DNA of 32,000 nucleotides from a bacterium YEK0313 (GTDB taxonomy: Bacteria; Pseudomonadota; Alphaproteobacteria; Rhizobiales; Phreatobacteraceae), in NCBI GenBank assembly GCA_000751295.2, contig CCMO02000002.1:1187806-1219805 (forward strand), given 5' to 3'. The notes beneath the pieces are model-generated. The model was not told the origin of the DNA. It searched no databases and was given only the letters and a program-made list of their open reading frames with translations. The position numbers and the translations under genes are program-made. Of this stretch, positions 1 through 13,339 are shown in pieces; positions within the stretch are counted from its first letter, which is position 1, and each line of letters starts with the position of its first letter.

Positions 1-170
1 AGTTCCCGGGCATGGCGGATGAACGTCAGCCGCCGAATATCCTCTGCTCCATAGAGGCGTCGTCCACTGTCGGTCCGGGGCGCCGGGGGTATCAGCCTGA
101 TCCGTTCATAATAGCGGATCGTCTCGATATTGACGCCCGTGCGTTTGGACAAGGTTCCGATAGTGATCAT
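1..170 (-). CDS. MerR-family (CadR/PbrR/ZntR-like) metal-responsive transcriptional regulator, N-terminal part only (continues beyond window start)
   Basis: Reverse complement of 1-170 starts with ATG (168-170) and reads MITIGTLSKRTGVNIETIRYYERIRLIPPAPRTDSGRRLYGAEDIRRLTFIRHAREL. This is the canonical MerR winged-HTH N-terminus (ETIRYYE, RxY, RLxFI). It is absent from the ORF track because the window edge truncates it. It is divergent from the MerR-type promoter at 178-208. Confidence 0.85.
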   Translation of the reverse strand, partial: MITIGTLSKRTGVNIETIRYYERIRLIPPAPRTDSGRRLYGAEDIRRLTFIRHARE

Positions 171-177
171 CGCGGGG

Positions 178-208
178 TTGATTCTGTAGTGGCTACAGCA
201 TGTAGGTA
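178..208 (+). promoter_or_regulatory. MerR-type metal-responsive promoter/operator between the MerR gene and the ANL-enzyme operon
   Basis: TTGATT (178-183), a 19-bp spacer, then TAGGTA (203-208). The spacer holds a perfect dyad, CTGTAG-TGG-CTACAG (184-198). An over-long spacer carrying a dyad is the MerR-family hallmark. A near-identical copy lies at 6683-6713. Confidence 0.7.
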
Positions 209-228
209 TAGCGACTCGCTGGAGGTGT

Positions 229-1425
229 GTGAACCCGAGAACGATTATGACCGAGCATGTCGTAGGCCTGATCTGGGACGCCTGGCGAGCTAAGCGTCAG
301 GGGCGCGAGGCGCTCGCGGCTTGCCAGACGAGCCGCCTCGTCGACATGGTGGCCTATGCGCGGGCTCGCTCGCCCTTCTATGGTGAGCGCTATCACGATC
401 TCCCGGACCGCATTGAGGACCCGCGCCAATTGCCGGTTACCGACAAGAAGCTGCTCATGGAGCGCTTCGACGAATGGTGCACCGATCGCGCCGTCACGCT
501 CCAGGCTGCAGAAGCGCTCGTCGACGATCCCAGCCGGATCGGAGAGTGGTTCCTCGGAAAATATACCGTGATGACCACCTCCGGCACGACCGGCCGCCGC
601 GGCATCTTCGTGGTCGACGATCGCACGATGGCGGTCGTGACTGCAATGATGCTCCGCTGGGTTGGTGACTGGCTCAGTCCCAGTGACTATCTCAAGATCG
701 TCGCCCGCCGTGGGCGGATGGCGATGGTGATGGCGACCGGCGGCCATTTCGCGTCGGCTGTTGCCGCGGCGCGTCTGAAGAAGCGGCGCGGAAAACACGT
801 CGAGGTGCTTTCGGCGCACATGCCGATGACAGAGCTTGTGGCTCGCCTGAACCGTTTCCAGCCGGCGATACTTGCCCCTTATGCCAGCATGGCCGCTCTG
901 CTCGCCGACGAGCAGGAGGCCGGCCGGCTCGACATCCATTACCGCCCGGTCGCTCCAGGCGAGCAGTCGCACACGGTGCTGATCAGCAATCTCGCCAATC
1001 GTGTGCAGCCGATCCTGCGATACGATCTTGGCGACAGCGTGCTGCAGCGGCCCGATCCATGCCCCTGCTGCAATCCGTTGCCCGCGATCCGCGTCCAGGG
1101 CCGTTCCGCAGACGTCCTCACTTTTCGCGCTTCGACGGGCGAGGTCAGGCTTCCTCCGCTGGCGCTCACCCAGCGCATCGAGGCCGTTCGGGGCATCACG
1201 CTCTTTCAACTCGCGCAGACGGCGCCCGCGGCACTTGAGATGCATCTGCAACTCGCGCCGACGGCTAATGCAGAAACCGTCTGGCGCGAGGCCGAAGCAG
1301 GTTTGCGGAAGGTGCTTGCCGAGCACGGACTTGAACACGTCGTCGTTGAGCGCGGCGATCACCCTGGCGGCGCGGTCCTCGGCGGGAAGTTCCGAGAGGT
1401 CATTCCCCTGTCGACATCAGGCTGA
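229..1425 (+). CDS. PaaK (phenylacetate-CoA ligase) / coenzyme F390 synthetase-like adenylate-forming enzyme, short paralog missing the central core segment
   Basis: 398-aa ORF. It shares with the downstream paralog the P-loop-like MTTSGTTGRRGIF, PVTDKK, NLANRVQPILRYDLGD, CPCCNPLPAIRVQGRSADVL and C-terminal GGKFREVIPL. The track start at 229 is a GTG only 3 nt after GGAGG (221-225); ATG 247 is an alternative start. Confidence 0.75.
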   Translation: MNPRTIMTEHVVGLIWDAWRAKRQGREALAACQTSRLVDMVAYARARSPFYGERYHDLPDRIEDPRQLPVTDKKLLMERFDEWCTDRAVTLQAAEALVDDPSRIGEWFLGKYTVMTTSGTTGRRGIFVVDDRTMAVVTAMMLRWVGDWLSPSDYLKIVARRGRMAMVMATGGHFASAVAAARLKKRRGKHVEVLSAHMPMTELVARLNRFQPAILAPYASMAALLADEQEAGRLDIHYRPVAPGEQSHTVLISNLANRVQPILRYDLGDSVLQRPDPCPCCNPLPAIRVQGRSADVLTFRASTGEVRLPPLALTQRIEAVRGITLFQLAQTAPAALEMHLQLAPTANAETVWREAEAGLRKVLAEHGLEHVVVERGDHPGGAVLGGKFREVIPLSTSG

Positions 1426-1579
1426 ACAGGTCCGGCCGAACGCGAAAGAAGGTGGCGTGCGCTTCGGCGAGAAACAGCATCGGATCATTCTGTGGAGCGT
1501 GGCCGCCACCGCGGTTGCCATTGCCGTGGCCGGCGCAGGTCTTGGACGCGGTCTGGCCCGGGAAAGAAGGAGAAGGCTC

Positions 1580-2947
1580 GTGAGCCAGCGTCCCCTGTGG
1601 CTATCTGCTTCCCGAAATCCGGAGAAAGTGAAGGAGAGGCTTGCCGAGATCGTGGCCTTTGCCCGGGCCAACTCTCCCTACTACCGCGATCTGTACAAGA
1701 ATCTGCCCGCGAGGGTCGAGGACTCCCGCCTGCTGCCCGTCACCGACAAGAAGACGCTCATGGCGAACTTCGATCGTTGGGTGACGGATCGCGAGGTCAC
1801 GATTGAGCGCGTGCGTAAGTTTATCGAAGATCCGAGCCTCGTCGGCGAAATGCTCCTCGGGAAATATCTGGTCGCCACGACCGCCGGCACGACGGGCAAA
1901 CCGGGCATCTTCATATTGGATGACAATCACATGCGAGGCGGGACATCCGGCCTCCGAGAAGCGTTCAGAACCTGGCTGTCGCTCGGGGACGTTGTACGGA
2001 TTGTTCTGCGCGGAGCGCGATTTGCGGCCCTGCACGCCACCGGCGGTCATTTCGTTTCGGTTACGGGTTTCACTCGGGCGCGGCGCTCCAGCCGGGTTTT
2101 GGCGAAACTCACTCGCGATTTCTCGGTGCACGCGCCGATAAGGGAACTCGTCAACGGCCTCAATGAGTTCCGTCCAGCCGTTGTCCTTGGCTACGCCTCT
2201 ACCGCCTCTCTGCTGGCTCGCGAGCAGGAACTTGGACGGCTGCGCATCAAGCCGGTGTTGTTGGTGGTTACGGCCGAGGGCCTTGCGGAAGAAGAGTACG
2301 GGCGGATCGCCAAGGCGTTCGGCGCGAAGGTCCGCAACACATGGGGCTCAACCGAGATCGGTGGCCCGACCTACAGCTGCACCGAGGGATGGCTCCACGT
2401 CGTCGGCGACTGGATCATCCTCGAGCCGGTGGATGCCGATTTCCGCCCCGTTTCGCCGGGCGAGGAGTCGGACACGGTGCTGGTGACCAATCTCGCCAAT
2501 CGCGTGCAGCCGATCCTGCGTTACGATCTCGGCGACCGCATCCTGCAGAGGCCGGACCCTTGTCCCTGCGGCAATCCCCTGCCGGCGATCCGCGTCCAGG
2601 GTCGCTCCGCCGAGGTTCTCCGCTTTCCGACCCAAGCCGGCAAAGACGTCTCGATACCGCCGCTCGCGTTCGAGATCGACCACGTGCCGGGAGTCGATCT
2701 GTCGCAAGTCGTGCAGACTGCGCCGACCAACTTGCGCGTACGCCTGCGCCTCGAGTCTGGTGCGGATCCGGACCAAGTCTGGAGGACGGTGCACGGCGAA
2801 TTGAAGCATTTGCTCGACAGCCACGAACTCCACGAGGTGACGATCGAGCGCGCCGAGGAGCCGCCGGAACAGTCGAGGGGCGGCAAGGTCAGGCAGGTCA
2901 TTCCGCTGGCTCAAGCAGAACCGCCGGCCGATCGAAAACAAGACTGA
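1580..2947 (+). CDS. PaaK / F390 synthetase-like adenylate-forming enzyme (ANL superfamily), full-length paralog
   Basis: 455 aa from GTG 1580 (AAGGAG at 1567-1572, 7-nt spacer). Motifs: ATTAGTTGKPGIF, WGSTEIGG, CPCGNPLPAIRVQGRSAEVL, GGKVRQVIPL. In-frame GTG 1457 would add a hydrophobic N-terminal segment (ILWSVAATAVAIAVAGAGLG). The track ORF start at 1001 overlaps the upstream gene and is not credible. Confidence 0.8.
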   Translation: MSQRPLWLSASRNPEKVKERLAEIVAFARANSPYYRDLYKNLPARVEDSRLLPVTDKKTLMANFDRWVTDREVTIERVRKFIEDPSLVGEMLLGKYLVATTAGTTGKPGIFILDDNHMRGGTSGLREAFRTWLSLGDVVRIVLRGARFAALHATGGHFVSVTGFTRARRSSRVLAKLTRDFSVHAPIRELVNGLNEFRPAVVLGYASTASLLAREQELGRLRIKPVLLVVTAEGLAEEEYGRIAKAFGAKVRNTWGSTEIGGPTYSCTEGWLHVVGDWIILEPVDADFRPVSPGEESDTVLVTNLANRVQPILRYDLGDRILQRPDPCPCGNPLPAIRVQGRSAEVLRFPTQAGKDVSIPPLAFEIDHVPGVDLSQVVQTAPTNLRVRLRLESGADPDQVWRTVHGELKHLLDSHELHEVTIERAEEPPEQSRGGKVRQVIPLAQAEPPADRKQD

Positions 2948-2960
2948 AAGGAGCGTGGTC

Positions 2961-3152
2961 ATGAAGGAAGTCGCCAAGTTCCTCGCTGGATTTGCCGGAA
3001 ATCAGCTCCTGACGCATGGGGTTTTGGCGATCAGCGGCACCCGGTTCAGTGTCTTCGGGATCGATTACACCCCTAAATTGAACACGACCGCCGCGATCGT
3101 CTGGGGCGTGCTCATGCTGCTACTGATTTACTATGCCTGGGTCAGGAGATGA
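2961..3152 (+). CDS. Small (63 aa) membrane protein, no recognisable family
   Basis: ATG 2961 lies 7 nt after AGGAG (2949-2953) and 13 nt after the stop of the upstream gene. It has a C-terminal hydrophobic helix, AAIVWGVLMLLLIYYAWV. It contains no Cys and a single His, so it is not an obvious metal binder. Confidence 0.5.
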   Translation: MKEVAKFLAGFAGNQLLTHGVLAISGTRFSVFGIDYTPKLNTTAAIVWGVLMLLLIYYAWVRR

Positions 3153-3196
3153 CGAGCACGATTCAGTACACGTCCATAGAAAGCCGGACATGAAAC

Positions 3197-3823
3197 ATGC
3201 CAGGTGACGAAGAGACCGAGATACGCCTCGATGCCCGTAATGTCGACGAACGACGCACGCTGCGCTGGGTACTCGGGATTAACTTCACGCAGGTCTTGGT
3301 AGCCGGTGCCGTCGGCATCCTGGCGGATTCCACGGGCCTGCTCGGTGCCGCACTCGACAATCTGGGGGACGCCGCAGTTTATGCGGTCAGTCTCTATGCG
3401 GTCGGCCGCACGGTCATTACCAAGGCACGCGCCGCAAACCTGTCCGGCATTCTTCTGATCCTCCTTGCCTTCGGTTTGCTTGTAGAAGTCTTGCGTCGGT
3501 TTTTCGCGGGAGCCGAGCCGATCGGGCTCGCGATGATCATCACGGCGCTCGCGAACGCGGCTACCAATTTGCTCTGCCTTCGCCTTTTGCGAGCGCATCG
3601 TGCGCATGGTGTGCACTTCAAGGCGTCGTGGATTTTTACAACGAACGACATGCTGGCCAATGCGGGCATCGTCCTTTCCGGTCTCTTGGTGATGTTTCTG
3701 AAGTCTCCGGTCCCCGATCTCGTGATCGGGGTTCTGATCGTCGGAATCGTCCTCAAAGGAGGGTGGGAGATTCTCAAAGAGGCGCGTGAAGCCCGCGATT
3801 CTGCACAGGGAAACAGAGGATGA
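3197..3823 (+). CDS. Cation diffusion facilitator (CDF)-type cation efflux protein, membrane domain only
   Basis: 208 aa with six hydrophobic helices. It has a CDF-like TM2, ADSTGLLGAALDNLGDAAVY (DxxxD), and a TM5, SWIFTTNDMLANAGIV. The protein ends soon after TM6, so it has no cytoplasmic C-terminal domain. Confidence 0.8.
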   Translation: MPGDEETEIRLDARNVDERRTLRWVLGINFTQVLVAGAVGILADSTGLLGAALDNLGDAAVYAVSLYAVGRTVITKARAANLSGILLILLAFGLLVEVLRRFFAGAEPIGLAMIITALANAATNLLCLRLLRAHRAHGVHFKASWIFTTNDMLANAGIVLSGLLVMFLKSPVPDLVIGVLIVGIVLKGGWEILKEAREARDSAQGNRG

Positions 3824-3907
3824 CCAAACGTCTCCTGTGGACCCATAACCAGGCGTTTGCCTCCAGGAGGCCGGAAGATCTCGCCGAACGGGATTTGGAG
3901 AGCCGCA

Positions 3908-5155
3908 ATGCCCCGGATTCCACGTGACAGAAGTCTGGACTCGACGATCGCCCTGATGGGTGATCCCTATAGATTTATCTGGAATCGAAGTCGGCGCTAT
4001 CGATCGGACCTGTTTGAAACGCGGCTTCTGCTGCGGAAGACCATCTGTATGACGGGCCCGGAAGCGGCCCAGCTGTTCTACGATCCGAGCCGCTTCGTAC
4101 GCACCGGTGCGATGCCTAAGGCGATCCAGAAGACGTTGCTCGGCGTAGGTGGCGTGCAGGGCCTCGACGACGACGCCCACCGGCATCGCAAGCAAATGTT
4201 CATGTCGCTGATGACACCCGAGCGGATCGAGCAGCTCATCCAGCTGACCGCGGCCGAGTGGCAGATCCGAGTGCTCAAGTGGGGATCGATGGACGAGGTC
4301 GTGCTCTATTCAGAGCTCCACTTGCTTCTGACACGCGCGGCCTGTGCCTGGGCCGGTGTGCCGCTCGCGGATTCAGAGGTCGACGCGCGGACCAAGGAGA
4401 TTGCCGCGTTGTTCGACCATGCGGGTTCGGTCGGACTTAGACACCTGTGGTCGCGGTGGGCCCGAAAACGGGCTGATCGTTGGATGGCGGATATCATCGA
4501 TCAGATCCGCGGTGGCCGTATCCGGCCGCCCGAACAGTCGGCTGCCCACATCATTGCGTGGCATCGGGATCTCAATGGTGAGCTGCTCACGCCTCAGATC
4601 GCCGCTGTCGAACTGATCAATGTGATCAGGCCGACGGTTGCCGTCTCGGTTTACATGATTTTCGTCGCCCACGCATTGCACGCGCATCCCAAAATTCGAG
4701 AGAGGCTTCAGGCCGACGACGACAGCTACTCCCGCTGTTTCGTCCAGGAGGTTCGCCGGTACTATCCTTTTTTCCCGGCAGTCGCTGCGCGAACGCGGCA
4801 GGCATTCGATTGGAACGGATACCAATTCCCCGCAGGTCGACGCGTTCTCCTCGATCTATACGGCACCAACCAGGACCCCCGAACTTGGGAGAGACCGGAG
4901 GAGTTCGAGCCCGAGCGATTCCGCCGGTGGAACGAGAGCCCATTCAATTTCATCCCGCAGGGCGGCGGAGACCACTACGCTAATCATCGCTGTCCTGGCG
5001 AATGGATTGCAATCGAGCTCATGAAGCTGACTGCGGATTTCCTCACGCGCTCCATGAGCTACGAGGTGCCGCAGCAAGACCTGGGCATTGACTGGTCGCG
5101 GCTGCCCGCATTGCCGCGTAGCCGGTTCGTGATCAGCAACGTCGGGGAACGCTGA
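3908..5155 (+). CDS. CYP152-family cytochrome P450 fatty-acid peroxygenase (P450 BSbeta / SPalpha / OleT family)
   Basis: It aligns along its whole length, from memory, with P450 BSbeta: PRDRSLDST...DPYRFI, HRHRKQMFMSLMTPE, VELINVIRPTVAVS (the Arg-Pro carboxylate anchor), FVQEVRRYYPFFP, LLDLYGTNQDPRTW and the heme ligand HRCPGEW. ATG 3908 follows GGAGAG (3896-3901). The track start at 3857 adds 17 unsupported residues. Confidence 0.9.
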   Translation: MPRIPRDRSLDSTIALMGDPYRFIWNRSRRYRSDLFETRLLLRKTICMTGPEAAQLFYDPSRFVRTGAMPKAIQKTLLGVGGVQGLDDDAHRHRKQMFMSLMTPERIEQLIQLTAAEWQIRVLKWGSMDEVVLYSELHLLLTRAACAWAGVPLADSEVDARTKEIAALFDHAGSVGLRHLWSRWARKRADRWMADIIDQIRGGRIRPPEQSAAHIIAWHRDLNGELLTPQIAAVELINVIRPTVAVSVYMIFVAHALHAHPKIRERLQADDDSYSRCFVQEVRRYYPFFPAVAARTRQAFDWNGYQFPAGRRVLLDLYGTNQDPRTWERPEEFEPERFRRWNESPFNFIPQGGGDHYANHRCPGEWIAIELMKLTADFLTRSMSYEVPQQDLGIDWSRLPALPRSRFVISNVGER

Positions 5156-5229
5156 AATGTCCCTGCATATGCGCCGGCAAGCTGAAGCACCAAAGTCCTG
5201 GCAGTCAAGCGACGGCAAGGAGAACCCGA

Positions 5230-5799
5230 ATGAGTAAACCTCCGATACCGAAAGACCTGCCTGCCGAGCTGGCACGCGTCCGCCGTCAGGCTGCGCTGTC
5301 TTTCTTGTTTTGCGCGCCCGTTCTTGGGGCGGCCGTCTGGTGGCTGCCACAGCAGTTCAACTTTCCGGCAGAAGTGGGCGAGCGGCTGGCGTTCGCCGCG
5401 CGGTCGAGCCTGCTCATCATGCTTTGGGTCTTGATTGGGGTCGGAATCATTGCGAGGCTCCGGCGCAAGTCAGCGCACGACACTGCGGGCTCTGCCTACG
5501 GCCCGCCGAGCGAGCGGCTAAGAGTTCCGCTGGCGTTCCTGCAAAACACGCTTGAGCAGGCGACGCTGGCGGCCTTTGCCGTCATGGCGCTCGCCACGGT
5601 CGAGGGCGAGGCGCCGCTCGCTTTCATAGTGGGAATGGTCGTGCTGTTCGGGATCGGGCGAATCACCTTCTTTCGTGGCTATCCTCATGGTTCGCCTGGC
5701 AGGGCGTTCGGCGTGGTGACGACTGCGTTGCCGATCATGGGCGCGTTTGCCTGGGTGATCTTCGACATAGGCGAGAGGCTGATCCGCGGCGTCGCCTAG
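5230..5799 (+). CDS. MAPEG-family membrane protein (glutathione transferase / eicosanoid-metabolism-like fold)
   Basis: 189 aa with four hydrophobic helices and MAPEG-like motifs FLQNTLEQ and RITFFRGY. The RBS AAGGAG sits just upstream of ATG 5230. Confidence 0.65.
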   Translation: MSKPPIPKDLPAELARVRRQAALSFLFCAPVLGAAVWWLPQQFNFPAEVGERLAFAARSSLLIMLWVLIGVGIIARLRRKSAHDTAGSAYGPPSERLRVPLAFLQNTLEQATLAAFAVMALATVEGEAPLAFIVGMVVLFGIGRITFFRGYPHGSPGRAFGVVTTALPIMGAFAWVIFDIGERLIRGVA

Positions 5800-5816
5800 T
5801 CGCCCGGCGTCGTCCC

Positions 5817-6587
5817 ATGAGCGCTTCTCTCTACGAGCCGATCAGCATTTACAAGGCCGTCGCGGCGAACATCGGCATCGTCGATGGACCATTCGAATAT
5901 CTGACGGTCGGTGGCGCAAGGTTGCCGCTTCCGTTCACTACTCGAATGACAGTCGTGCGCCTCGCGAACGGCGACCTCTTCCTCCACTCGCCGACTAAGT
6001 TTGACGATCGTCTAGCGGCGGAGTTGCAACAGTTGGGAGCACCTCGCCATCTCGTATCGCCCAACCAGTTCCACTACGCGCACATCGGCGAGTGGCAGAA
6101 GGCGTTTCCCGACGCGATTGCATGGGCGTCCCCGCGAGTTCGTCAAAGGGCCGCAGCGCGCGGAATATCAATCAACTTTTCGAGAGACCTGGAGGCAGTT
6201 CCGCCGGGAGAATGGCGAGGGGAAATCGACCAGACGCTTTTCCCCGGCGGCTATTTCAAGGAATTCATTTTCTTCCACGAGGCGTCCAAGACGCTGATCC
6301 TCACCGATACGATCATCAACATCGAGTTGGACAAGATCGGAGAGCCCTGGCGGACGGTCACGCGGCTCACCGGTATGTACCACCCGTACGGTCAGATCTT
6401 CTTTGGCATGCGGCTTCCACTTCTCCTGCAGCGGAGAAAGAGGGACGCGGCGCTGGCCAAGATCCGCTCGTGGCAGCCGCATCGAATCATTCTCAGCCAC
6501 GGACGCTGCTTTGAGGCACATGGAGGCGAGGTTATTCGACGGATATTCGGCAGTGCAGGCGCCAGCGGATGGCGATCGAGCTCATAA
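5817..6587 (+). CDS. DUF4336 domain protein (uncharacterised, metallo-beta-lactamase-like fold)
   Basis: 256 aa. The blocks MTVVRLANGDLFLHSP, RHLVSPNQFHYAHIGEW, FPDAIAWASP and FIFFHEASKTLILTDTIINIE match my recollection of DUF4336 conserved blocks. The start is 17 nt after the MAPEG stop. Confidence 0.65.
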   Translation: MSASLYEPISIYKAVAANIGIVDGPFEYLTVGGARLPLPFTTRMTVVRLANGDLFLHSPTKFDDRLAAELQQLGAPRHLVSPNQFHYAHIGEWQKAFPDAIAWASPRVRQRAAARGISINFSRDLEAVPPGEWRGEIDQTLFPGGYFKEFIFFHEASKTLILTDTIINIELDKIGEPWRTVTRLTGMYHPYGQIFFGMRLPLLLQRRKRDAALAKIRSWQPHRIILSHGRCFEAHGGEVIRRIFGSAGASGWRSSS

Positions 6588-6682
6588 GGTCGCCGGATGT
6601 ATTACCTTGCTACTGTGACACCGGCTCTTGCAAGCCACAATTCTGGCCGCGAACAGCGCCGCTCTTCCGGCACAGGGCCCGC

Positions 6683-6713
6683 TTGATTCTGTAGCGGCTA
6701 CAGAATGTAGGAT
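6683..6713 (+). promoter_or_regulatory. Second MerR-type metal-responsive promoter/operator, upstream of the P1B ATPase
   Basis: TTGATT (6683-6688), a 19-bp spacer, then TAGGAT (6708-6713). The dyad TTCTGTAG-CGG-CTACAGAA (6687-6705) lies in the spacer. It is almost identical to the site at 178-208. Confidence 0.7.
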
Positions 6714-6750
6714 CCCTAGTCAAGCCAGCGAGAATGTTGGGCAGTCAAGC

Positions 6751-9700
6751 ATGAACGGACGGCGATTCGAAGGATACATGATGAAGGTTGACACCATGAG
6801 GAGCACTGCGCGCCCGCTCCGCTTCAAAGTCGCCGGCTTGGATTGCCAGAATGAAATCCGCGCGCTTCGTGGGGCGGTGGGACCAATCGTCGGAGGCGAC
6901 GACAAGCTGTCCTTCGACACCAAGGCGGGCCTGATGGAGGTAGCGGTCGGGGATCCTACCCTGGTTATTGAAATAACCCGGGCGGTTGATGCCACGGGAA
7001 TGCGAGCGGACCTTCTGCCAGAGCGAACGCCGCAGTCTACATCGGCGCTGCTTTTTCAGATCGACGGGCTCGACTACAAGAACGAAGTCGCCGTGCTCAA
7101 ACGTGAGATCGGTCCGCTTGTAGGGGGCGAGGATCGGCTGGCATTCGATACCGCGAGACGGTTGATGACGGTCGCGCCGCAAAGCCAAGCGACGATCCAA
7201 GACATCGTTCGAGCCGTTGCGCCGACCGGCATGCGTGCCTCGCTTGTTGGAGATGGCGTGGACGAGGCGGTGCTCTACCGTGTGCACGGACTCGACTGCA
7301 AGAACGAGGTGGCGGCCCTGACGCGGGAGCTGGCACCGCTCGTCGGAGAGGACAATCTCGCGTTTGACACAGAACGCGGCATGATGACGGTGGGGCCTCA
7401 GAAGCGGGTCGTCTCTGATGTGATCAAGGAGGCCGTGGCTCGAGCGGGTATGCGCGCGGAACCATGGGCGCCGGAAACCGTGTCGTCTGCTTTCGCCAAC
7501 CCCACCTCCCAGCAGGAAGACTTGGCCTGCGGCTGTGGCGCAGAGGTGCAGGAGGTCTTCAGTCCGCCGATCCCGACCCACTTACCCGGTCAGGTCGTGT
7601 TTCGCATTCATGGCATGGATTGCGCCGACGAGATCGCGGCCTTGAAGCGCGAGGTCGGTCCGCTCGTCGGGGAAGACAAGCTCGCCTTTGATCTCCTCAA
7701 CGGCCGCATGTCGATCGACGTGACACCGGATTCCGTGCTCGAAGCAAGTATCGAGAAGGCGGTGGCTCGCGCCGGCCTGCGCGCGGAGCCGTGGATCGAA
7801 GGCGGCATTAGCGACGCCGCACAGATCGAAGAGCGCCGGAAGCGGGTGCAGTCGTGGCTCACAACCGCAAGCGGCGTGCTCACCGCGCTGGGCTTCGCGG
7901 TCCACGCTTGGCTCGGGGGCGGCGTCATAGCCGCTTTCGAGGCAGGCGAACATGCCAGGGGCACAACCCCGTTGCCGAGCATGGTTCTCTACGCGGTCGC
8001 CGTGCTCTGTGCCGCGCGCTACGTCGCGCCCAAGGCTTGGCTCGCGGCCAAGCGACTTCGCCCCGACATGAATCTGCTGATGATGGTTGCGGTCGCGGGC
8101 GCGATCGGTATCGGCGCCTGGTTCGAGGCCGCCACCGTTTCGTTCTTTTTTGCATTGGCGCTGGCGCTCGAGGCCTGGAGTCTTGGTCGCGCGCGCCGCG
8201 CGGTTGCCGCCCTCATGGAACTCGCCCCGCCGACAGCGCGCGTCAAGCTCGAAGACGGCTCCGAGCGCGACGTGGCGGCGGCCGAGGTGCGAGTCGGCGC
8301 GAGGATCATAATCCGGCCGGGAGACAAGGTGCCGCTCGACGGCCGGGTCGTCGCTGGCGAGAGCGAGGTCAACCAGGCACCGATCACCGGTGAAAGCGTC
8401 CCCGTGTTCAAGGCGGAAGGGGACGACGTATTTGCCGGGACCATCAACGGTGAGGGCGCAATTGAGGTCGTGACCACCAAAGCGGCGAATGACACGACGC
8501 TCGCCCAGATCATCCGCATGGTCGGTTCGGCGCAGAGCCGGCGCGCACCCAGTGAGCAATGGGTTGAGAAGTTCGCACGTGTCTACACGCCGGTCGTAAT
8601 GGTACTCGCCATTGCGATTTTTCTCGCTCCGCCCTTGCTTATGGGCGGCGCTTGGGACGTCTGGTTCTATCGGGCTCTCGTACTCCTCGTGATCGCTTGC
8701 CCCTGCGCTCTCGTGATTTCGACCCCGGTGACGATCGTGGCGGCCCTGGCCGGCGCGGCAAAGCAGGGGGTCCTGGTCAAGGGCGGCACCTATCTCGAGA
8801 CGCCTGCGCACCTCAAGGCGATTGCCTTGGACAAGACGGGCACGCTCACCGAAGGACGGCCGCAGGTTGTCGAGATCGTGCCGCTTGGAGGTCGCAGCGA
8901 AACTGAGCTCCTCGGTCTGGCCGCGGCCCTGGAGGCGCGCAGCGGGCATCCGATCGCTCGCGCCATCCTGGCGAAAGCCGCCGAGCTGAAGATCGCCGCC
9001 GAGCCTGCCGAGGCTGTCCAAGCCATCACTGGCCGAGGCGTCATCGGGCGAGTGGCCGGCCGCGAAATGTGGCTCGGCTCGCGCCGCTACCTTGAGGAGC
9101 GCGGCGTCAATTCTGCTGAGGTTCTGCAGCGGGCGGATGCGCTTTCGAGCGCCGGTCGCACCATCGTTGCGGTCGGCGATGGTCAGGACGTCTGGGGGCT
9201 CGTTGCTGTCGCCGATGCTGTCAGGCCGGAGGCCAAGGACATTGTCACGGCGCTGCACCGCGCCGGGATCGAACACGTTGTGATGCTCACCGGAGACAAT
9301 CGCGCGACAGCCGAGGCGATTGCGAAGCAGACAGGCATCGACGAGGTCCAGGCAGAACTGCTGCCGGGCGACAAGGTGGCGGCGGTCGAGGATTTGGTGC
9401 GGCGCTACGGATCGGTGGCGATGGTCGGCGACGGAGTCAATGACGCTCCCGCGATGGGGCGTGCCAATCTCGGCATCGCCATGGGTGCCATGGGCAGCGA
9501 CGCCGCCATTGAAACGGCCGATGTTGCGCTCATGTCGGACGATCTGTCGAAACTTCCTTGGCTTGTGCGCCATTCGCGGGCGACGCTCGCCGTCATCCGA
9601 CAGAACGTTGCCTTCTCGATCGCCGTGAAGTTCTTGTTCACAGGGCTGACAGTGATTGGTCTCGCATCGCTCTGGGGTGCTATCGCAGCGGACGTCGGCG

Positions 9701-9843
9701 CGTCTCTGCTGGTCGTTCTCAATGGCCTGCGCCTGCTCAATCGTGGTCAGACCAGCGGTCAAAAGGGTGGCCCATCCAGCGGTCTTGGCGTTTCGACGCA
9801 GCAGCGTCGTGCCCCGACCATCGCCGAAACGGTCCCGGCGTAG
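6751..9843 (+). CDS. Heavy-metal translocating P1B-2-type ATPase (Zn/Cd/Pb class; ZntA/CadA/PbrA-like) with four N-terminal HMA-like domains
   Basis: Motifs: PITGESVP (TGES), ACPCALVISTP (CPC), DKTGTLT, SGHPIA, GDGVNDAPA. A Lys in SIAVK and ADVGASLLVVLN (DxGx7N) give the P1B-2 transmembrane signature. The start is uncertain: in-frame ATGs lie at 6751, 6778, 6781 and 6796. The track start at 6628 lies upstream of the promoter, so it is rejected. Confidence 0.95.
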   Translation: MNGRRFEGYMMKVDTMRSTARPLRFKVAGLDCQNEIRALRGAVGPIVGGDDKLSFDTKAGLMEVAVGDPTLVIEITRAVDATGMRADLLPERTPQSTSALLFQIDGLDYKNEVAVLKREIGPLVGGEDRLAFDTARRLMTVAPQSQATIQDIVRAVAPTGMRASLVGDGVDEAVLYRVHGLDCKNEVAALTRELAPLVGEDNLAFDTERGMMTVGPQKRVVSDVIKEAVARAGMRAEPWAPETVSSAFANPTSQQEDLACGCGAEVQEVFSPPIPTHLPGQVVFRIHGMDCADEIAALKREVGPLVGEDKLAFDLLNGRMSIDVTPDSVLEASIEKAVARAGLRAEPWIEGGISDAAQIEERRKRVQSWLTTASGVLTALGFAVHAWLGGGVIAAFEAGEHARGTTPLPSMVLYAVAVLCAARYVAPKAWLAAKRLRPDMNLLMMVAVAGAIGIGAWFEAATVSFFFALALALEAWSLGRARRAVAALMELAPPTARVKLEDGSERDVAAAEVRVGARIIIRPGDKVPLDGRVVAGESEVNQAPITGESVPVFKAEGDDVFAGTINGEGAIEVVTTKAANDTTLAQIIRMVGSAQSRRAPSEQWVEKFARVYTPVVMVLAIAIFLAPPLLMGGAWDVWFYRALVLLVIACPCALVISTPVTIVAALAGAAKQGVLVKGGTYLETPAHLKAIALDKTGTLTEGRPQVVEIVPLGGRSETELLGLAAALEARSGHPIARAILAKAAELKIAAEPAEAVQAITGRGVIGRVAGREMWLGSRRYLEERGVNSAEVLQRADALSSAGRTIVAVGDGQDVWGLVAVADAVRPEAKDIVTALHRAGIEHVVMLTGDNRATAEAIAKQTGIDEVQAELLPGDKVAAVEDLVRRYGSVAMVGDGVNDAPAMGRANLGIAMGAMGSDAAIETADVALMSDDLSKLPWLVRHSRATLAVIRQNVAFSIAVKFLFTGLTVIGLASLWGAIAADVGASLLVVLNGLRLLNRGQTSGQKGGPSSGLGVSTQQRRAPTIAETVPA
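6817..7794 (+). repeat. Four tandem HMA-like domain repeats inside the ATPase N-terminus (protein-level repeat)
   Basis: Repeat units lie at nt 6817-7017, 7048-7248, 7270-7467 and 7594-7794. Each has the pattern (F/Y)x(V/I)xG(L/M)D(C/Y)xxE(I/V)xxL...GPLVG(G)ED(K/R/N)L(A/S)FD...GMRA. A CGCG motif at 7528-7539 sits in the linker before repeat 4. Confidence 0.8.
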
Positions 9844-9916
9844 ATCGAGGTTGCGTCAGCGCAACCCAACCCAAGCACACCGGTCGCGGAGAATGGCCGA
9901 AAAAGAAAGGACTTGA

Positions 9917-10447
9917 TTGAGCGTGGCGTATCCGAGGCTGATCCGACGAGCTACATTGGCATGTGGTGCTTTAGCTGCCGCCCTTGCGGTCGATTTTGTT
10001 ACGAAATGGCTGATCCTCAACGTCGTAATGGTGCCGCCGCGGACGATCGAGATCGCGCCATTTTTCAACCTGACCCTCGGTTTCAATACGGGTGTCAGTT
10101 TCGGAATGTTCCGTGAGCTCTTCCTCGATCGCCCATTGATGCTCGCCGGAATCAAGATGTTGATCGTCGCCGGCCTTCTCCTCTGGGCCATGAGAACGCC
10201 AAAGCCATTGGAGACGGTTGGTCTCGGCCTGATCGCCGGCGGTGCGATGGGCAATATTGTGGACCGGATAAGTCAAGGTGCCGTGACCGATTTCCTCGAT
10301 TTCCATGTCGGAAGATGGCACTGGCCGGCCTTCAACATGGCGGACACGATGATAACGATCGGCGTCGTCTTGCTGATCGCCGGCTCCTTTTGGCCGGTGA
10401 GGTCGATGACTCCCGTTCAGAAGCGGCCGAGCGCCGCGGAGCACTGA
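9917..10447 (+). CDS. lspA: Lipoprotein signal peptidase (signal peptidase II)
   Basis: 176 aa with four TM helices. LspA blocks are present: FNLTLGFNTGVSFG, GGAMGNIVDR, VTDFLDF and the catalytic-Asp block WPAFNMADTMITIG. The start is TTG 9917, with GTG 9923 as an alternative. Confidence 0.9.
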   Translation: MSVAYPRLIRRATLACGALAAALAVDFVTKWLILNVVMVPPRTIEIAPFFNLTLGFNTGVSFGMFRELFLDRPLMLAGIKMLIVAGLLLWAMRTPKPLETVGLGLIAGGAMGNIVDRISQGAVTDFLDFHVGRWHWPAFNMADTMITIGVVLLIAGSFWPVRSMTPVQKRPSAAEH

Positions 10448-10472
10448 CGATGGCGCTCATCAATGTTTTTTT
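10429..10472 (+). terminator. Weak candidate intrinsic terminator after lspA
   Basis: GAGCGCC (10429-10435) pairs with GGCGCTC (10452-10458), followed by a run of seven T (10466-10472). A T run is conspicuous in this GC-rich DNA. However, the loop is long (16 nt) and the stem is 7 nt away from the T run. Confidence 0.25.
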
Positions 10473-10557
10473 GCTCTCACCCTGCGGGCTGCCGCTCGTT
10501 CGGGCTACCTATCCTACGGCTTGTGCATACGGAGCAACTCGCCCGTTGGCCCTCGTA

Positions 10558-10757
10558 ATGCATGATCAGCAAGCCAAGAAGCGCGCACTACTGTTCTTGA
10601 ATCGGCGAAGCGGCAACGGTGGTGATCGCGCGCCGGATGCCGCTGTCCAGCAACTTGAGGCCGGCGGATTGTTTTGATGCGCGGGTCATGCATTCAAGCA
10701 GAAGATGTCACCCGCGAGATCAAACGCCATGCGCACGTGGTGTGGCACTCCGGCTGA
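10558..10757 (+). pseudogene. Decayed N-terminal fragment of a diacylglycerol-kinase-family (YegS-like) lipid kinase
   Basis: ATG 10558 reads MHDQQAKKRALLFLNRRSGNGGDRAPDAAVQQLEAGGLF then a stop (10675-10677). The +2 frame continues MRGSCIQAEDVTREIKRHAHVVWHSG then a stop (10755-10757). The KRALLxxNxxSGxG...L(E/x)AGG pattern is the start of DAGK-type lipid kinases. The fragment is frameshifted and truncated before the GGDGT motif. Confidence 0.4.
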
Positions 10758-11008
10758 TATACGTCCATTTCGGACGAAATATATGCAAACGCGTTGCAAT
10801 AGCATCTTAACATGAACTGACTACAGTCCTGTCAACAGTGCTGCCGATCCGAGTCGGGCTGCGCCTAGGAACCACGAAAATCCCAGCGCGCAGTTCCCAT
10901 ATTGGTTGAGGCGGTTGCCGCTTGGCCGGGGCATGCATTCCGGGAGTGCCACGGCTGCAGTTCACCGGAATCACAGAGGAGTTCCGGCCGCTGGAGGCGC
11001 AAATTGAG

Positions 11009-11908
11009 TTGAGGCACCTGCGCTATGCCGTCGCCGCCGCGCACTATGGGAGCTTCCGGCGGGCGGCGGAGGCGCTCGGGGTCAAGCAATCCACGCTGAG
11101 CCGCTGCATATCGCAATTGGAAATTCGTCTGGGTGTCGTGTTGTTCGAGCGAACCAGCGGGGGAGTTCGACTGACCACGGCGGGGGCTGAAATATTGCGC
11201 ACGTCCCGGCACTTGGTCGAAACCGTCGACCATATGGCCGCGACAGCCAAGGAAATGGGTAGGGGCGAGGCCGGCCGTCTCACCGTCGGATTCTACACCT
11301 CGCTTTCGGCCGGAAATCTTCGGGCCAGCCTGATCGAGTATGCATCGCGGTTCCCCAAGGTCGAGATCCGGACATATGAGGGCGCACGCGCTTGCCTCTT
11401 CGCCGGCGTCGACGCCGGGCGGCTCGACGTTGCCATCGTTACCGGTGATCCGGTTCCTGGCGAGGGGAAGGTGATGGGGCTCTGGAGCGAACGCATCATG
11501 GTCGCGCTGCCAGAGGGCCACCGGCTCGCCGCCAACAACATCGTCTATTGGACGGACCTCAAGGACGAGACGTTCCTGTTCAGCCAGCACGATCCCGGTC
11601 CTGAGATCCAGGACATCCTTCTGGCGAAGCTTGCGGCGCCGGGCGAGCGGCCAAAGGTCATCAGCCACGATGTCAGCCGCGAGAACATCAAGAGCCTGGT
11701 CGGGGCTGGCTTTGGCGTCAGCCTGATGTGCGAAGCCTGCGTTGGGGCTGCGTACACAGGCGTGGTCTATCGCGAGGCGCGCGACGGCAACGGGCCGAGC
11801 AGGATCAGCTATGCCGCCTATTGGCAGCCCAACAACGACAATCCAGCGCTGGCGGGTTTCATCAGCCTGCTTCAAGAGCGCTATCCCGCGCTGCCGGCAG
11901 GTGATTGA
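11009..11908 (+). CDS. LysR-family transcriptional regulator
   Basis: The N-terminal HTH is LRHLRYAVAAAHYGSFRRAAEALGVKQSTLSRCISQLEIRLGVVLFERTSGGVRLT, followed by a LysR substrate-binding domain. I chose TTG 11009 (giving MRHLRY...; GGAGG at 10993-10997) as the start. The track start at 10922 is also TTG, so the true start is uncertain. Confidence 0.85.
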   Translation: MRHLRYAVAAAHYGSFRRAAEALGVKQSTLSRCISQLEIRLGVVLFERTSGGVRLTTAGAEILRTSRHLVETVDHMAATAKEMGRGEAGRLTVGFYTSLSAGNLRASLIEYASRFPKVEIRTYEGARACLFAGVDAGRLDVAIVTGDPVPGEGKVMGLWSERIMVALPEGHRLAANNIVYWTDLKDETFLFSQHDPGPEIQDILLAKLAAPGERPKVISHDVSRENIKSLVGAGFGVSLMCEACVGAAYTGVVYREARDGNGPSRISYAAYWQPNNDNPALAGFISLLQERYPALPAGD

Positions 11909-12123
11909 CGCTGCCGTCGCGCCTTCGCAAAGCCCCGATCGGTCGCCATGAAACGCTCGACCATGGGCACGATCAGCTTGGCCGGATCGGCTGCCGGATG
12001 TCCCGTTTCCCGAGCCAGGATCTCGGCATAAGCGACCAAATCCCGATGCACGGCGGCAGGAAGCTCGATCGTCAGCTTGACCGGCTTGTCGTCTGCGATG
12101 GCTCCCAGCTTCAGCTTCGCCAT
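11881..12123 (-). CDS. DUF2274 domain protein (conserved gene downstream of trbI in this ICE family)
   Basis: The 80-aa MAKLKLGAIADDKPVKLTIELPAAVHRDLVAYAEILARETG... matches the DUF2274 pattern I recall. ATG 12123 lies next to the trbI stop (12125-12127). Confidence 0.8.
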   Translation of the reverse strand: MAKLKLGAIADDKPVKLTIELPAAVHRDLVAYAEILARETGHPAADPAKLIVPMVERFMATDRGFAKARRQRQSPAGSAG

Positions 12124-12124
12124 A

Positions 12125-13339
12125 TCAGCCTCCGTAGGGCTCGAGGACGAGGTCGCGGGTGACGATGACGCGAACCGGAAAGCCGGGCCGGATGGTCAGC
12201 GTCGGCGCGACGTTCAACTGGCGGCGGACGATCTGCTGGCCGGCGTCGTTGATCGTGTCCTGACCGCCATTGCGGATAGCCTGGATCAGCCGATCGTCGT
12301 CGTTGGTGGCAAGCTCGGCGCCGATGCTCAGCAGCGTGGAAAGACCCGCCGCCTTGGCGAGATCCCACCAGTGATAGTCGACACCGTCCTGGAGACCGGC
12401 ATAGCCCTCGGCGTCAGCGCCGAGCTGGCGCTCGAGGACGATCGAGCGGCCATTGGGGAAGATCAGGCGGTTCCAGACCAGCAGCACGCGGCTCTGGCCG
12501 AACTGAACATTGTTGTCGTACTGGCCGATGATGCGCGTGCCTTGGGGTACGAGCAGGATGCGCCCCGTCGGGCTGTCATAGATATTCTCCGTCACCTGCG
12601 CGGTGATCTGGCCCGGAAGGTCGGATCGGATGCCGGTGATCAGCGCGGCAGAGATGACGGCGCCGGCTTGCAGAATGTTGGGCGATGCCGGCGCCGCTAT
12701 GCGGTCTGGCGCGACGGTGCGCCGATCGGCAGCGGCGTTGAGGAAGGCGAGCTGCCGATCCTGCGCGGATGGCGTGGCGGGCTGCGGAGCCAGGCCCAGA
12801 CTCGCCAGGTCAGGTGTGGGCTGCGGCGCAACCGCCGCCGAGCCGGGGCTCGGCGATGACATCGGGCGATTTTCCGTGCCGGCGAAGAGCCTGGCTGTGC
12901 GCGCGGCCTCGATCTCCTGCAGCCGTCGCTGCTCCTCGGCGCTGAGGCTGGGATTGGGTGCCGCGACGCCAGGGGGCACGGGCTGTCCGCGGTTCTGCGC
13001 GCCAAGGATCGGCCGCCCAAGATCGCCGGGTAGTGGCGGACCGAGCTGGGGAATGCCGCTGTAGTCGCGCGGTAACCCCGCGAGACCGTCGGCGGTCGAG
13101 CGGTTCTCGGTCGAATAGAGTTCCTCAGCGGGCCTGCCCCCGTCGCGGGTCTGGAGCGCGTAGATCAACGCACCGCCCAATCCCACGCTTGCGACGAGAC
13201 CGATGCCGGCGAGCGCCTTGCGCGAGAGCCGCGTGACACGCGGCGGTTCGGCGCGGAGCCGCATCGGGGCGGCCGCGTCGGCGGCTGCTCCGGTCAGCGG
13301 CGCGTCTTCTTCTTTTTGTTCGCTTGCGGGCTCGCTCAC
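12125..13339 (-). CDS. trbI: Conjugal transfer protein TrbI (VirB10 homolog)
   Basis: GTG 13339 overlaps the trbG stop (a GTGA overlap). Features: an N-terminal TM helix (LAGIGLVASVGLGGALIY), a Pro-rich linker and a conserved C-terminal VirB10 domain (GAVISAALITGIRSDLPGQITAQV...LLVWNRLIFPNG...PTLTIRPGFPVRVIV). The longer track ORF (to 13591) runs through trbG. Confidence 0.9.
   Translation of the reverse strand: MSEPASEQKEEDAPLTGAAADAAAPMRLRAEPPRVTRLSRKALAGIGLVASVGLGGALIYALQTRDGGRPAEELYSTENRSTADGLAGLPRDYSGIPQLGPPLPGDLGRPILGAQNRGQPVPPGVAAPNPSLSAEEQRRLQEIEAARTARLFAGTENRPMSSPSPGSAAVAPQPTPDLASLGLAPQPATPSAQDRQLAFLNAAADRRTVAPDRIAAPASPNILQAGAVISAALITGIRSDLPGQITAQVTENIYDSPTGRILLVPQGTRIIGQYDNNVQFGQSRVLLVWNRLIFPNGRSIVLERQLGADAEGYAGLQDGVDYHWWDLAKAAGLSTLLSIGAELATNDDDRLIQAIRNGGQDTINDAGQQIVRRQLNVAPTLTIRPGFPVRVIVTRDLVLEPYGG

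Follow-up and report, generated by a model that had tools for sequence, protein, structure and literature searches.

A cad/pbr-type heavy-metal island from bacterium YEK0313 and the recurrent pairing of its PaaK-like adenylate-forming enzyme family with P1B ATPases

Layout of the island and its two promoter copies

We analysed a stretch of 32,000 nucleotides from bacterium YEK0313 (Alphaproteobacteria, Rhizobiales, Phreatobacteraceae; contig CCMO02000002.1, positions 1,187,806 to 1,219,805 of the forward strand), here called the window. Judged by its gene content, the locus at the left end of the window is an extended cadR-cadA-lspA or pbr-type heavy-metal island that rides as cargo on a Tn4371-like integrative and conjugative element (ICE). 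The first transcription unit of the island opens with two tandem genes for PaaK-like adenylate-forming enzymes of the ANL superfamily, named ANL1 and ANL2 below. A first-pass annotation of the same letters had described seven same-strand genes preceded by a dyad-bearing promoter (TTGATT-19 bp-TAGGTA) and by a merR gene in divergent orientation, and all of these were found again at the positions it gave. It had closed its proposed metal module at 171-3823 and missed what lies just downstream, namely promoter-operator P2 (6683-6713), a P1B ATPase and LspA; the ATPase and LspA under this second promoter copy are the core of the locus. The features are as follows.

1..170, reverse strand: 5' part of merR (Pfam MerR), CadR/PbrR-like; the gene continues beyond the window edge
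178..208, forward strand: promoter-operator P1, with -35 TTGATT, a 19-nt spacer containing a dyad, and -10 TAGGTA
247..1425, forward strand: ANL1 (start possibly GTG 229), PaaK-like, catalytic core deleted
1580..2947, forward strand: ANL2, intact PaaK/F390-synthetase-like adenylate-forming enzyme of an uncharacterised subfamily
2961..3152, forward strand: 63-aa membrane hairpin protein, conserved, without a family name
3197..3823, forward strand: CDF protein of 208 aa, membrane domain only (PF01545)
3908..5155, forward strand: CYP152-type P450 (fatty-acid peroxygenase type; NCBIfam CypC 592.7 bits)
5230..5799, forward strand: MAPEG-family membrane protein (PF01124, 40.7 bits)
5817..6587, forward strand: DUF4336 protein (PF14234, 45.5 bits), final gene of the first transcription unit
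6683..6713, forward strand: promoter-operator P2, with TTGATT, a 19-nt spacer containing CTGTAG-CGG-CTACAG, and TAGGAT
6781..9843, forward strand: Zn/Cd/Pb-type P1B ATPase (TIGR01512, 509 bits; CPC motif)
9917..10447, forward strand: LspA (signal peptidase II), PbrC/CadC-like (Pfam Peptidase_A8, 120 bits)

A terminator scan, itself at chance level, found no terminator-like sites above chance between the seven genes of the first unit, and Rfam found no RNA elements in 1-12 kb.

The reverse-strand open reading frame (ORF) of merR has its ATG at 170, and its product begins MITIGTLSKRTGVNIETIRYYER. Its winged-helix N-terminal DNA-binding domain (window 3-170) scored 59.2 bits with PF00376 and 58.7 bits with PF13411. 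A metagenome contig (L097) that is 100% identical to window 1-12544 supplied the full protein of 154 aa, which contains Cys78, Cys113 and Cys122 as well as C83; the first three match the spacing of the metal-binding cysteines of PbrR/MerR (~79, 114 and 123; PMC3431237). Orthologues of the regulator, 88-90% identical over the shared part, matched the NCBIfam CadR-PbrR model best, at 106-108 bits (cut-off 151.45).

P1 begins with its -35 element (178-183) 8 bases past the merR ATG and continues with a 19-nt spacer (184-202), which holds the perfect dyad CTGTAG-TGG-CTACAG (184-198), and the -10 element (203-208). A 19-bp spacer containing a dyad is the experimentally defined architecture of MerR/PbrR promoters (PMC3431237, PMC1526738). 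Because of this spacing it is expected that a generic sigma-70 scan for spacers of 16-18 nt found no promoter in the region. The dyad occurs exactly twice in the 32 kb, against an expectation of 0.23 even with two mismatches allowed, and P1 and P2 form a 29-nt direct repeat with 93% identity. The same CadR/PbrR-like cassette stands directly upstream of the orthologous ANL gene in five other distinct loci, from a Burkholderiales metagenome-assembled genome (MAG), Chelativorans, Ancylobacter, Reyranella and Stappia, in keeping with the earlier description of P1 as a MerR-type activator promoter. A site equivalent to P2 precedes the ATPase gene in loci L002, L005, L008, L013, L033, L039, L047, L050 and L078. 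Related alpha- and betaproteobacterial islands (L002, L005, L008, L033, L039, L047 and L053) hold 2-5 copies of the TTGATYCTGTAG-N3-CTACAG cassette per locus, which precede ANL, the ATPase, a class I S-adenosylmethionine (SAM) methyltransferase, a short CDF, a MAPEG/Na-Ca exchanger pair or a TRAP transporter. The regulon is thus modular, since every cargo unit bears its own copy of the sensor's promoter, and the cassette resembles a portable regulatory unit. A further dyad copy with one mismatch lies upstream of the window, at L097 3556-3570.

When a plasmid collection was searched at the DNA level, the operon had no close copy there. Only the MerR-promoter piece was matched, on Sphingobium plasmids, where the same regulator and promoter lead to an ATPase-lspA pair without the seven-gene unit; this unit therefore appears to be an insert that either arrived with its promoter or copied one.

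The ATPase scored 509 bits with TIGR01512 (cut-off 313.5) and 596 bits with TIGR01525 (cut-off 346), while the ZntA-specific models stayed below their cut-offs. Its translation contains the CPC transmembrane motif within 'ACPCALV'. The N-terminus (6820-7700) consists of four tandem HMA-like repeats with G-[LM]-D-[CY]-x-x-E in place of the usual C-x-x-C, three of which were also recovered as an 83-nt direct-repeat family (D2). Translation probably starts at ATG 6781, as called on L097; the mechanical ORF start at 6628 is too far upstream and crosses P2. The CDF protein matched PF01545 Cation_efflux with 55 bits over positions 5-193 of 198, and as TIGR01297 covers only 2-195 of 285, its cytoplasmic tail is absent. 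The first-pass annotation was right that this CDF is tail-less but had placed it in an undescribed kind of module; for a CDF of this architecture there is a precedent: CdfX of Cupriavidus metallidurans is an experimentally studied Zn exporter without a cytoplasmic domain (PMC11580412). The likeness of the window's CDF to CdfX (Rmet_2299) is one of architecture and neighbourhood. Its search returned 937 relatives; the 120 best listed were all of ~199-233 aa, with no Cupriavidus entries among them.

The locus as a whole is a variant of the known cad/pbr type. With the cadR-cadA-cadC(lspA)+cdfX region on island CMGI-1 of C. metallidurans CH34 (PMC11580412) it shares the divergent MerR-type regulator, a P1B2 ATPase with four HMA-type motifs (C. 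metallidurans CadA begins with four HMA motifs), the downstream pro-lipoprotein signal peptidase, a nearby CDF without a cytoplasmic domain (regulated by Zn/Cd in CMGI-1) and the location on a horizontally acquired island. It differs in the seven-gene unit with its own promoter copy between regulator and pump; an adenylate-forming enzyme, CYP152, MAPEG and hairpin protein are not described for CMGI-1. With pbrTRABCD of pMOL30 (PMC3431237, PMC1526738) it shares a MerR-family activator with Cys79/114/123-type positions, the dyad promoter with a 19-bp spacer, a P-type ATPase and signal peptidase II. The window lacks PbrB, PbrD and PbrT and its regulator falls under the CadR-PbrR cut-off, whereas the pbr operon has neither ANL nor the other accessory enzymes of the window. 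Related islands (L110 2040-9649, L002 and L008) are fuller pbr-like lead-resistance sets than the window, with a PbrT-like FTR1-cytochrome c protein, BacA as an analogue of the PbrB-type phosphatase, MgtC, DUF6639 and a YegS-type lipid kinase.

Beyond the island, window 10922-32000 encodes LysR, TrbI, TrbG/CagX, TrbF(VirB8), TrbL, TrbE, a VirB3-like protein, a T2SSE ATPase, a TraG coupling protein (T4SS-DNA_transf), a relaxase with DUF3363, SLT, DUF2840 and RepA (RPA). This content is the backbone of a Tn4371-type conjugative element, with the metal island as cargo beside its trb end. On the other side, upstream of merR, L097 1-5750 carries a truncated second LspA (128 aa), DUF302, SHOCT, a 156-aa unknown protein and a Lactamase_B/ArsR/rhodanese/TauE sulfur-type cluster.

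Neighbourhoods of the ANL family

A family search of 5.8 billion proteins returned more than 2100 relatives of ~450 aa, and an exhaustive representative search returned 740 family clusters at E ≤ 1e-30. We counted neighbours in the 80 best loci of at least 549 relatives obtained from a scan of one genome per species. A P1B ATPase gene was present within 8 kb in 35 of the 80 loci, 34 of them with both genes in the same orientation; in 25 loci the two were co-oriented and no more than 1.5 kb apart. As a genome holds only a handful of such pumps, we estimate an enrichment of more than hundredfold. The tie between ANL genes and metal-stress genes with a transporter, which the first-pass annotation had proposed from a single locus, is therefore a property of many loci, and the neighbourhood is conserved well outside this element. 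ANL and pump are adjacent in more than 10 phyla of bacteria and archaea; pump-linked loci come from Alpha-, Beta- and Deltaproteobacteria, Chloroflexota, Planctomycetota, Acidobacteriota, Bacteroidota, Nitrospirota, Caldisericota, Gemmatimonadota and the archaeal Methanosarcina and Methanolobus. In a neighbour-joining tree, most non-actinobacterial leaves were pump-linked.

Among close relatives of the window, merR is divergent from DUF6639-ANL-ANL-hairpin-ATPase-LspA-CDF in a Rhodospirillales MAG, from ANL-hairpin-CDF-P450 ... ATPase-LspA in a Burkholderiales MAG and from ANL-hairpin-ATPase-LspA in a JGI contig. In more distant lineages the two genes often overlap. The ATPase stop and the ANL start share 4 nt in Methanosarcina/Methanolobus-type contigs, ATPase and ANL overlap by 1 nt in a Chloroflexota operon with the order ArsR-LspA-ATPase-ANL, and the ANL/ATPase overlap amounts to 14 nt in Pirellulales (Planctomycetes), where the genes lie within a czc cluster. 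Several plasmids of other bacteria and one archaeon have comparable arrangements.

Arthrobacter FB24 plasmid 3: P450, ArsR-ATPase-LspA-CcdA-CadD-'F390 synthetase'
Pseudonocardia alni plasmid: CadD, LspA, P450, ATPase, ArsR divergent from methyltransferase-ANL
Rubrobacter tropicus plasmid: ArsR-ATPase-methyltransferase-isoprenylcysteine carboxyl methyltransferase (ICMT)-ANL-LspA-ZIP
Rubrobacter marinus plasmid: ArsR-short CDF-methyltransferase-ANL
Mycolicibacterium crocinum plasmid: ATPase-ArsR divergent from methyltransferase-ICMT-cyclase-ANL
Haloarcula marina plasmid: DMT-VIT1-ANL, convergent with an ATPase

Arthrobacter sp. FB24 carries ANL on all three of its plasmids, the neighbourhood given being that of plasmid 3. 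Its clusters resemble the window in that a Cd-type efflux operon ends in a member of the same ANL family (~49% identity) with a CYP152-like P450 beside it, but they have an ArsR/SmtB repressor instead of a MerR activator, and CadD and CcdA instead of CDF, MAPEG and the hairpin protein. In loci from Actinomycetota and Cytobacillus (L104 3195-6320, L105 5237-7290, L106 5288-7338, L101 4186-6344 and L103 2568-6293) ANL directly follows a gene for a class I SAM methyltransferase, often with a 4-nt overlap, under ArsR/SmtB regulators and in two cases together with ICMT. Methyltransferase and ANL may be the more basic pair.

The searchable literature yielded no publication linking PaaK/F390-like enzymes to cad, pbr, zntA or lspA or to Arthrobacter, and nothing relevant on DVU_1553/1556; a Mesorhizobium Zn/Cd transcriptome paper does not mention such a ligase. 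The first-pass annotation knew of no described system of this composition, and no description of the link was found here. The apparent novelty lies in the conserved association of P1B pumps with this ANL subfamily and with its companion enzymes.

Identity and state of the two ANL paralogues

Neither ANL protein had a significant Pfam family, and all NCBIfam matches were below threshold. Assignment to phenylacetate-CoA ligase PaaK was rejected, with 20.2 bits for TIGR02155 (cut-off 646) and 44.5 bits for NF041878 (cut-off 700); no paa catabolic genes were found in the window, nor in those related loci that were examined. Membership in an aromatic-acid catabolic pathway had been named earlier as what would undo the metal link, and the phenylacetate pathway does not apply here. 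Coenzyme F390 synthetase was rejected as well: with 28.7 bits for TIGR03335 against a cut-off of 458.7, the public name 'F390 synthetase' of many relatives is a family-level label only. Foldseek matched the ANL2 model (pLDDT 66) to BT_0428, ClxA, NatL2 and PaaK1 with an E value of 4e-20, at TM scores of just 0.43-0.49, and hmmsearch related ANL to ClxA (E 1.5e-18). Enzymes of the PaaK family (PaaK1/2, BT_0428, NatL2, AjiA1, ClxA and 2-hydroxyisobutyryl-CoA ligase) share with ANL2 the size of ~450 aa, the ANL core motifs and a C-x-C-G motif before the hinge, and they are its best structural and sequence matches. The solved enzymes are only ~17-21% identical to it, and ANL2 falls far under every NCBIfam equivalog cut-off. 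ANL2 also stands apart from them in its context, which is metal efflux, without genes of a paa or benzoxazole pathway. Taken by fold and motifs, ANL2 thus appears to be PaaK-like, and neither a PaaK nor an F390 synthetase.

ANL2 retains the P-loop (A3), the T-E of A5, the Y-x-x-G-D of A7, the G-R of A8 and the A10 lysine in the family alignment, and it is under purifying selection (dN/dS 0.15-0.23). It starts at 1580, because MSQRPLW matches the N-terminus of its homologues. We dismissed a longer form that begins at 1457 and has a hydrophobic N-terminus, since the homologues begin with MSQRPLW and conservation of the DNA does not extend upstream of 1547. ANL1 is 44% identical to ANL2 and lacks ~64-66 residues, including the A5 'STE' motif and the surrounding strands. 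This segment is kept in all other homologues (more than 80 loci), and its loss is unique to this element. DNA alignment with full-length orthologues from Reyranella (80%), Phenylobacterium (76%) and Chelativorans (75%) showed a clean, in-frame deletion. A 189-nt stretch with 82% identity between ANL1 (938-1126) and ANL2 (2439-2627) begins at the deletion junction; we do not claim gene conversion at this border, as the stretch encodes the most conserved segment of the protein. The two genes fall in two different pump-linked clades of the neighbour-joining tree, and ANL1 is, as far as its sequence tells, a paralogue from the second of these clades that has lost its catalytic core. The tandem pair of PaaK-like enzymes noted earlier is hence real, but ANL2 is the only intact copy and the only one that looks active.

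Rather than being a dead remnant, ANL1 could have been kept as a non-catalytic partner subunit of ANL2. Its reading frame is open over 392 codons, and its dN/dS on the branch of the window (~0.16-0.25, versus 0.13-0.18 on the sister branch) showed no clear rise in a relative-rate test. Tandem ANL paralogues recur in five loci (L002, L013, L018, L032 and L095), and a natural fusion of two ANL domains exists in a distant family member of 1081 aa (P0332, 30% identity), which consists of an SCP2 lipid-binding/transfer domain, an ANL domain and a second ANL domain with a degenerate P-loop. However, the deletion occurs in this element alone, and sister elements do not keep the pair. In the closest relative (L095), ANL2 is 94% identical and the ANL1 orthologue is frameshifted; in L096 the latter is absent or reduced to a remnant; and in Chelativorans intermedius the frameshifted copy is ANL2. 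One copy being frameshifted or absent in sister elements suggests redundancy and decay, and we regard a subunit role of ANL1 as unlikely. Decay of tandem ANL genes was seen at L095 3-1233, L013 8001-9332 and L096 3970-4157, and which copy decays varies by lineage.

Companion genes and possible roles of ANL2

The 63-aa protein, described earlier as a single helix, is predicted by AlphaFold2 (pLDDT 95) to form a helix (2-25), a short beta hairpin and a second helix (38-61). It has 21 invariant positions in 19 homologues and a dN/dS of 0.12-0.30; ANL2, the hairpin protein and the CDF together range from 0.07 to 0.30, indicating purifying selection. No Pfam family covers it, and a fold search gave no significant match, the best being the transmembrane hairpin of GldL (E 0.3). 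It is found in MerR-controlled loci with or without ANL. In one locus without ANL, merR is divergent from hairpin-NaCaEx-MAPEG-two methyltransferases, and in another, pbr-like one it is divergent from PbrT-like-BacA-hairpin-MAPEG-methyltransferase-LspA-(ATPase). MAPEG recurs in related islands, often adjoining the hairpin protein. The P450 scored just under the CypC cut-off of 600 and has the Arg-Pro (IRP) and HRCPGEW motifs in its translation. CYP152 accompanies ANL in 10 of the 80 loci and also occurs on two actinobacterial plasmids; other companions in the 80 loci are class I SAM methyltransferases (22), CcdA (8), and ICMT, BacA and DUF302 (6 each), and DUF4336 was not found there. In Rubrobacter the ICMT gene overlaps ANL by 4 nt, and its product scored 273 bits against an equivalog cut-off of 160. 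The ANL pair, the 63-aa protein and the short CDF had been proposed to form a conserved module. In the neighbourhood survey each of these genes occurs without the others, and the four-gene set appears not to be a fixed module; the genes seem to shuffle in an accessory pool that includes SAM methyltransferases, ICMT, CYP152, MAPEG and BacA.

We consider it probable that this cad/pbr-type island on a Tn4371-like element is switched by metal at P1 and P2 together, and that ANL2 is the intact carboxylate-activating partner of its P1B pump. A single MerR-family sensor, with Cys78, Cys113 and Cys122, would bind both near-identical promoters. P1 would drive ANL1, ANL2, the hairpin protein, the short CDF, CYP152, MAPEG and DUF4336, and P2 the P-type ATPase and LspA, so that both units would be turned on together when the regulator binds Cd, Zn or Pb. 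ANL2, as a predicted cytosolic PaaK-type enzyme, would then use ATP to adenylate a carboxylic acid; the ion and the envelope would be the task of the pump, the short CDF and LspA. We infer that metal induces the island and that these products contribute to tolerance.

Several points weigh against this interpretation. The case for metal induction comes from promoter architecture only. The regulator's orthologues are below the CadR-PbrR equivalog cut-off and in a near tie with the MerR and CueR models, so that the inducing metal has to be deduced from the type of pump. The structural model of ANL2 is of moderate confidence. Furthermore, ANL has no metal genes around it on a Bradyrhizobium plasmid and in ~40 chromosomal loci of actinomycetes (among them Streptomyces and Nonomuraea), and hence the family is not exclusively metal-linked. 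Crude ORF clustering of these ~40 actinomycete loci revealed no informative conserved neighbour, only TetR and, in Micromonospora alone, a TauD-like protein.

With regard to the substrate, the acid that ANL2 turns into an acyl-adenylate or thioester might be a free carboxylate of hydrophobic character, although we find this rather doubtful. Candidates would be a free fatty acid, the CYP152 product of one, or an acid of the S-lipidated cysteine type, and ANL2 would then form one branch of a membrane-protecting response with CYP152, MAPEG and carboxyl or SAM methyltransferases. MAPEG proteins act on lipophilic substrates, and the targets of ICMT and methyltransferases are likewise carboxylates or lipophilic acceptors. 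The guess draws on these properties, on the presence of CYP152 in the same operon and its recurrence, on ICMT and methyltransferase genes that often overlap ANL, and on the SCP2 domain of the distant relative. Against a fatty acid speaks the pairing in methanogens and haloarchaea, whose membranes are made of isoprenoid ethers. Characterised PaaK-type enzymes use mostly aryl or small acids; CYP152, ICMT and MAPEG are each present in a minority of loci; and the SCP2 fusion belongs to a remote relative. At the level of the family, we tentatively suggest, somewhat short of being persuaded, that Zn/Cd/Pb P1B ATPases have in this ANL subfamily a widespread enzymatic partner, not recognised so far, whose ATP-dependent carboxylate chemistry, on a membrane-associated acid or a metal ligand, would aid tolerance.

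Alternatively, ANL2 could serve the pump in biosynthesis and not in the repair of lipids. It might make or tailor a small molecule that binds the metal, for example a thiol- or hydroxy-aryl acid in amide or ester form, or it might pass a metal-ligand complex to the ATPase. The tight and often translationally coupled pairing of ANL with the ATPase in bacteria and archaea is independent of lipid-type genes. Among solved structures, the nearest relatives include those of NatL2, AjiA1 and ClxA, enzymes that ligate hydroxy- or amino-benzoates into benzoxazole precursors, and the frequent overlap of a SAM methyltransferase gene with ANL is reminiscent of a short tailoring pathway. The conserved partners include, however, no dedicated precursor genes, carrier protein or exporter beyond the ion pumps, and identity to the benzoxazole enzymes is only ~20%. 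We therefore judge a ligand-making role improbable.

Could the ANL genes be passengers, ordinary acid-CoA ligases of an unrelated catabolism that mobile metal islands carry along and that came to lie behind a MerR promoter by chance? The island, a mobile mosaic on a Tn4371-like ICE, matches other contigs block by block; several lineages show decay of one copy of the tandem pair, and many actinomycete members have no metal context. Hitch-hiking fails to explain an adjacency that recurs in more than 10 phyla and in three kinds of regulatory setting, namely MerR, ArsR/SmtB and overlaps without a regulator. In several genera a separate copy of the metal promoter precedes ANL, purifying selection is evident and catabolic partner genes are absent, which makes this explanation very unlikely. 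Even less probable is an action of ANL on a protein, in which it would adenylylate or acylate the ATPase, an LspA-processed lipoprotein or the hairpin protein and thereby regulate efflux: start/stop overlap with the ATPase suggests stoichiometric co-production, LspA is often a neighbour and F390 synthetase is a PaaK-like enzyme that transfers a nucleotide to a non-carboxylate acceptor, but the hairpin protein is missing from most ANL loci and occurs without ANL, and no ANL-ATPase fusion was present among the 150 best family representatives.

Islands for heavy-metal resistance tend to be interpreted as sets of pumps with their regulators. If ANL2 is indeed a carboxylate-activating partner of the pump, an enzymatic arm would be added to a form of resistance that has so far been seen as the work of pumps, binding proteins and phosphatases. 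The partnership of the ANL family with pumps points to an unexplored biochemical step in Cd/Zn/Pb tolerance, and it offers a handle on other unexplained companions of these islands, including class I SAM methyltransferases, bacterial ICMT, CYP152, MAPEG and the 63-aa hairpin protein. The annotation of such islands, in which these genes are now labelled 'phenylacetate-CoA ligase' or 'F390 synthetase', would change as well.

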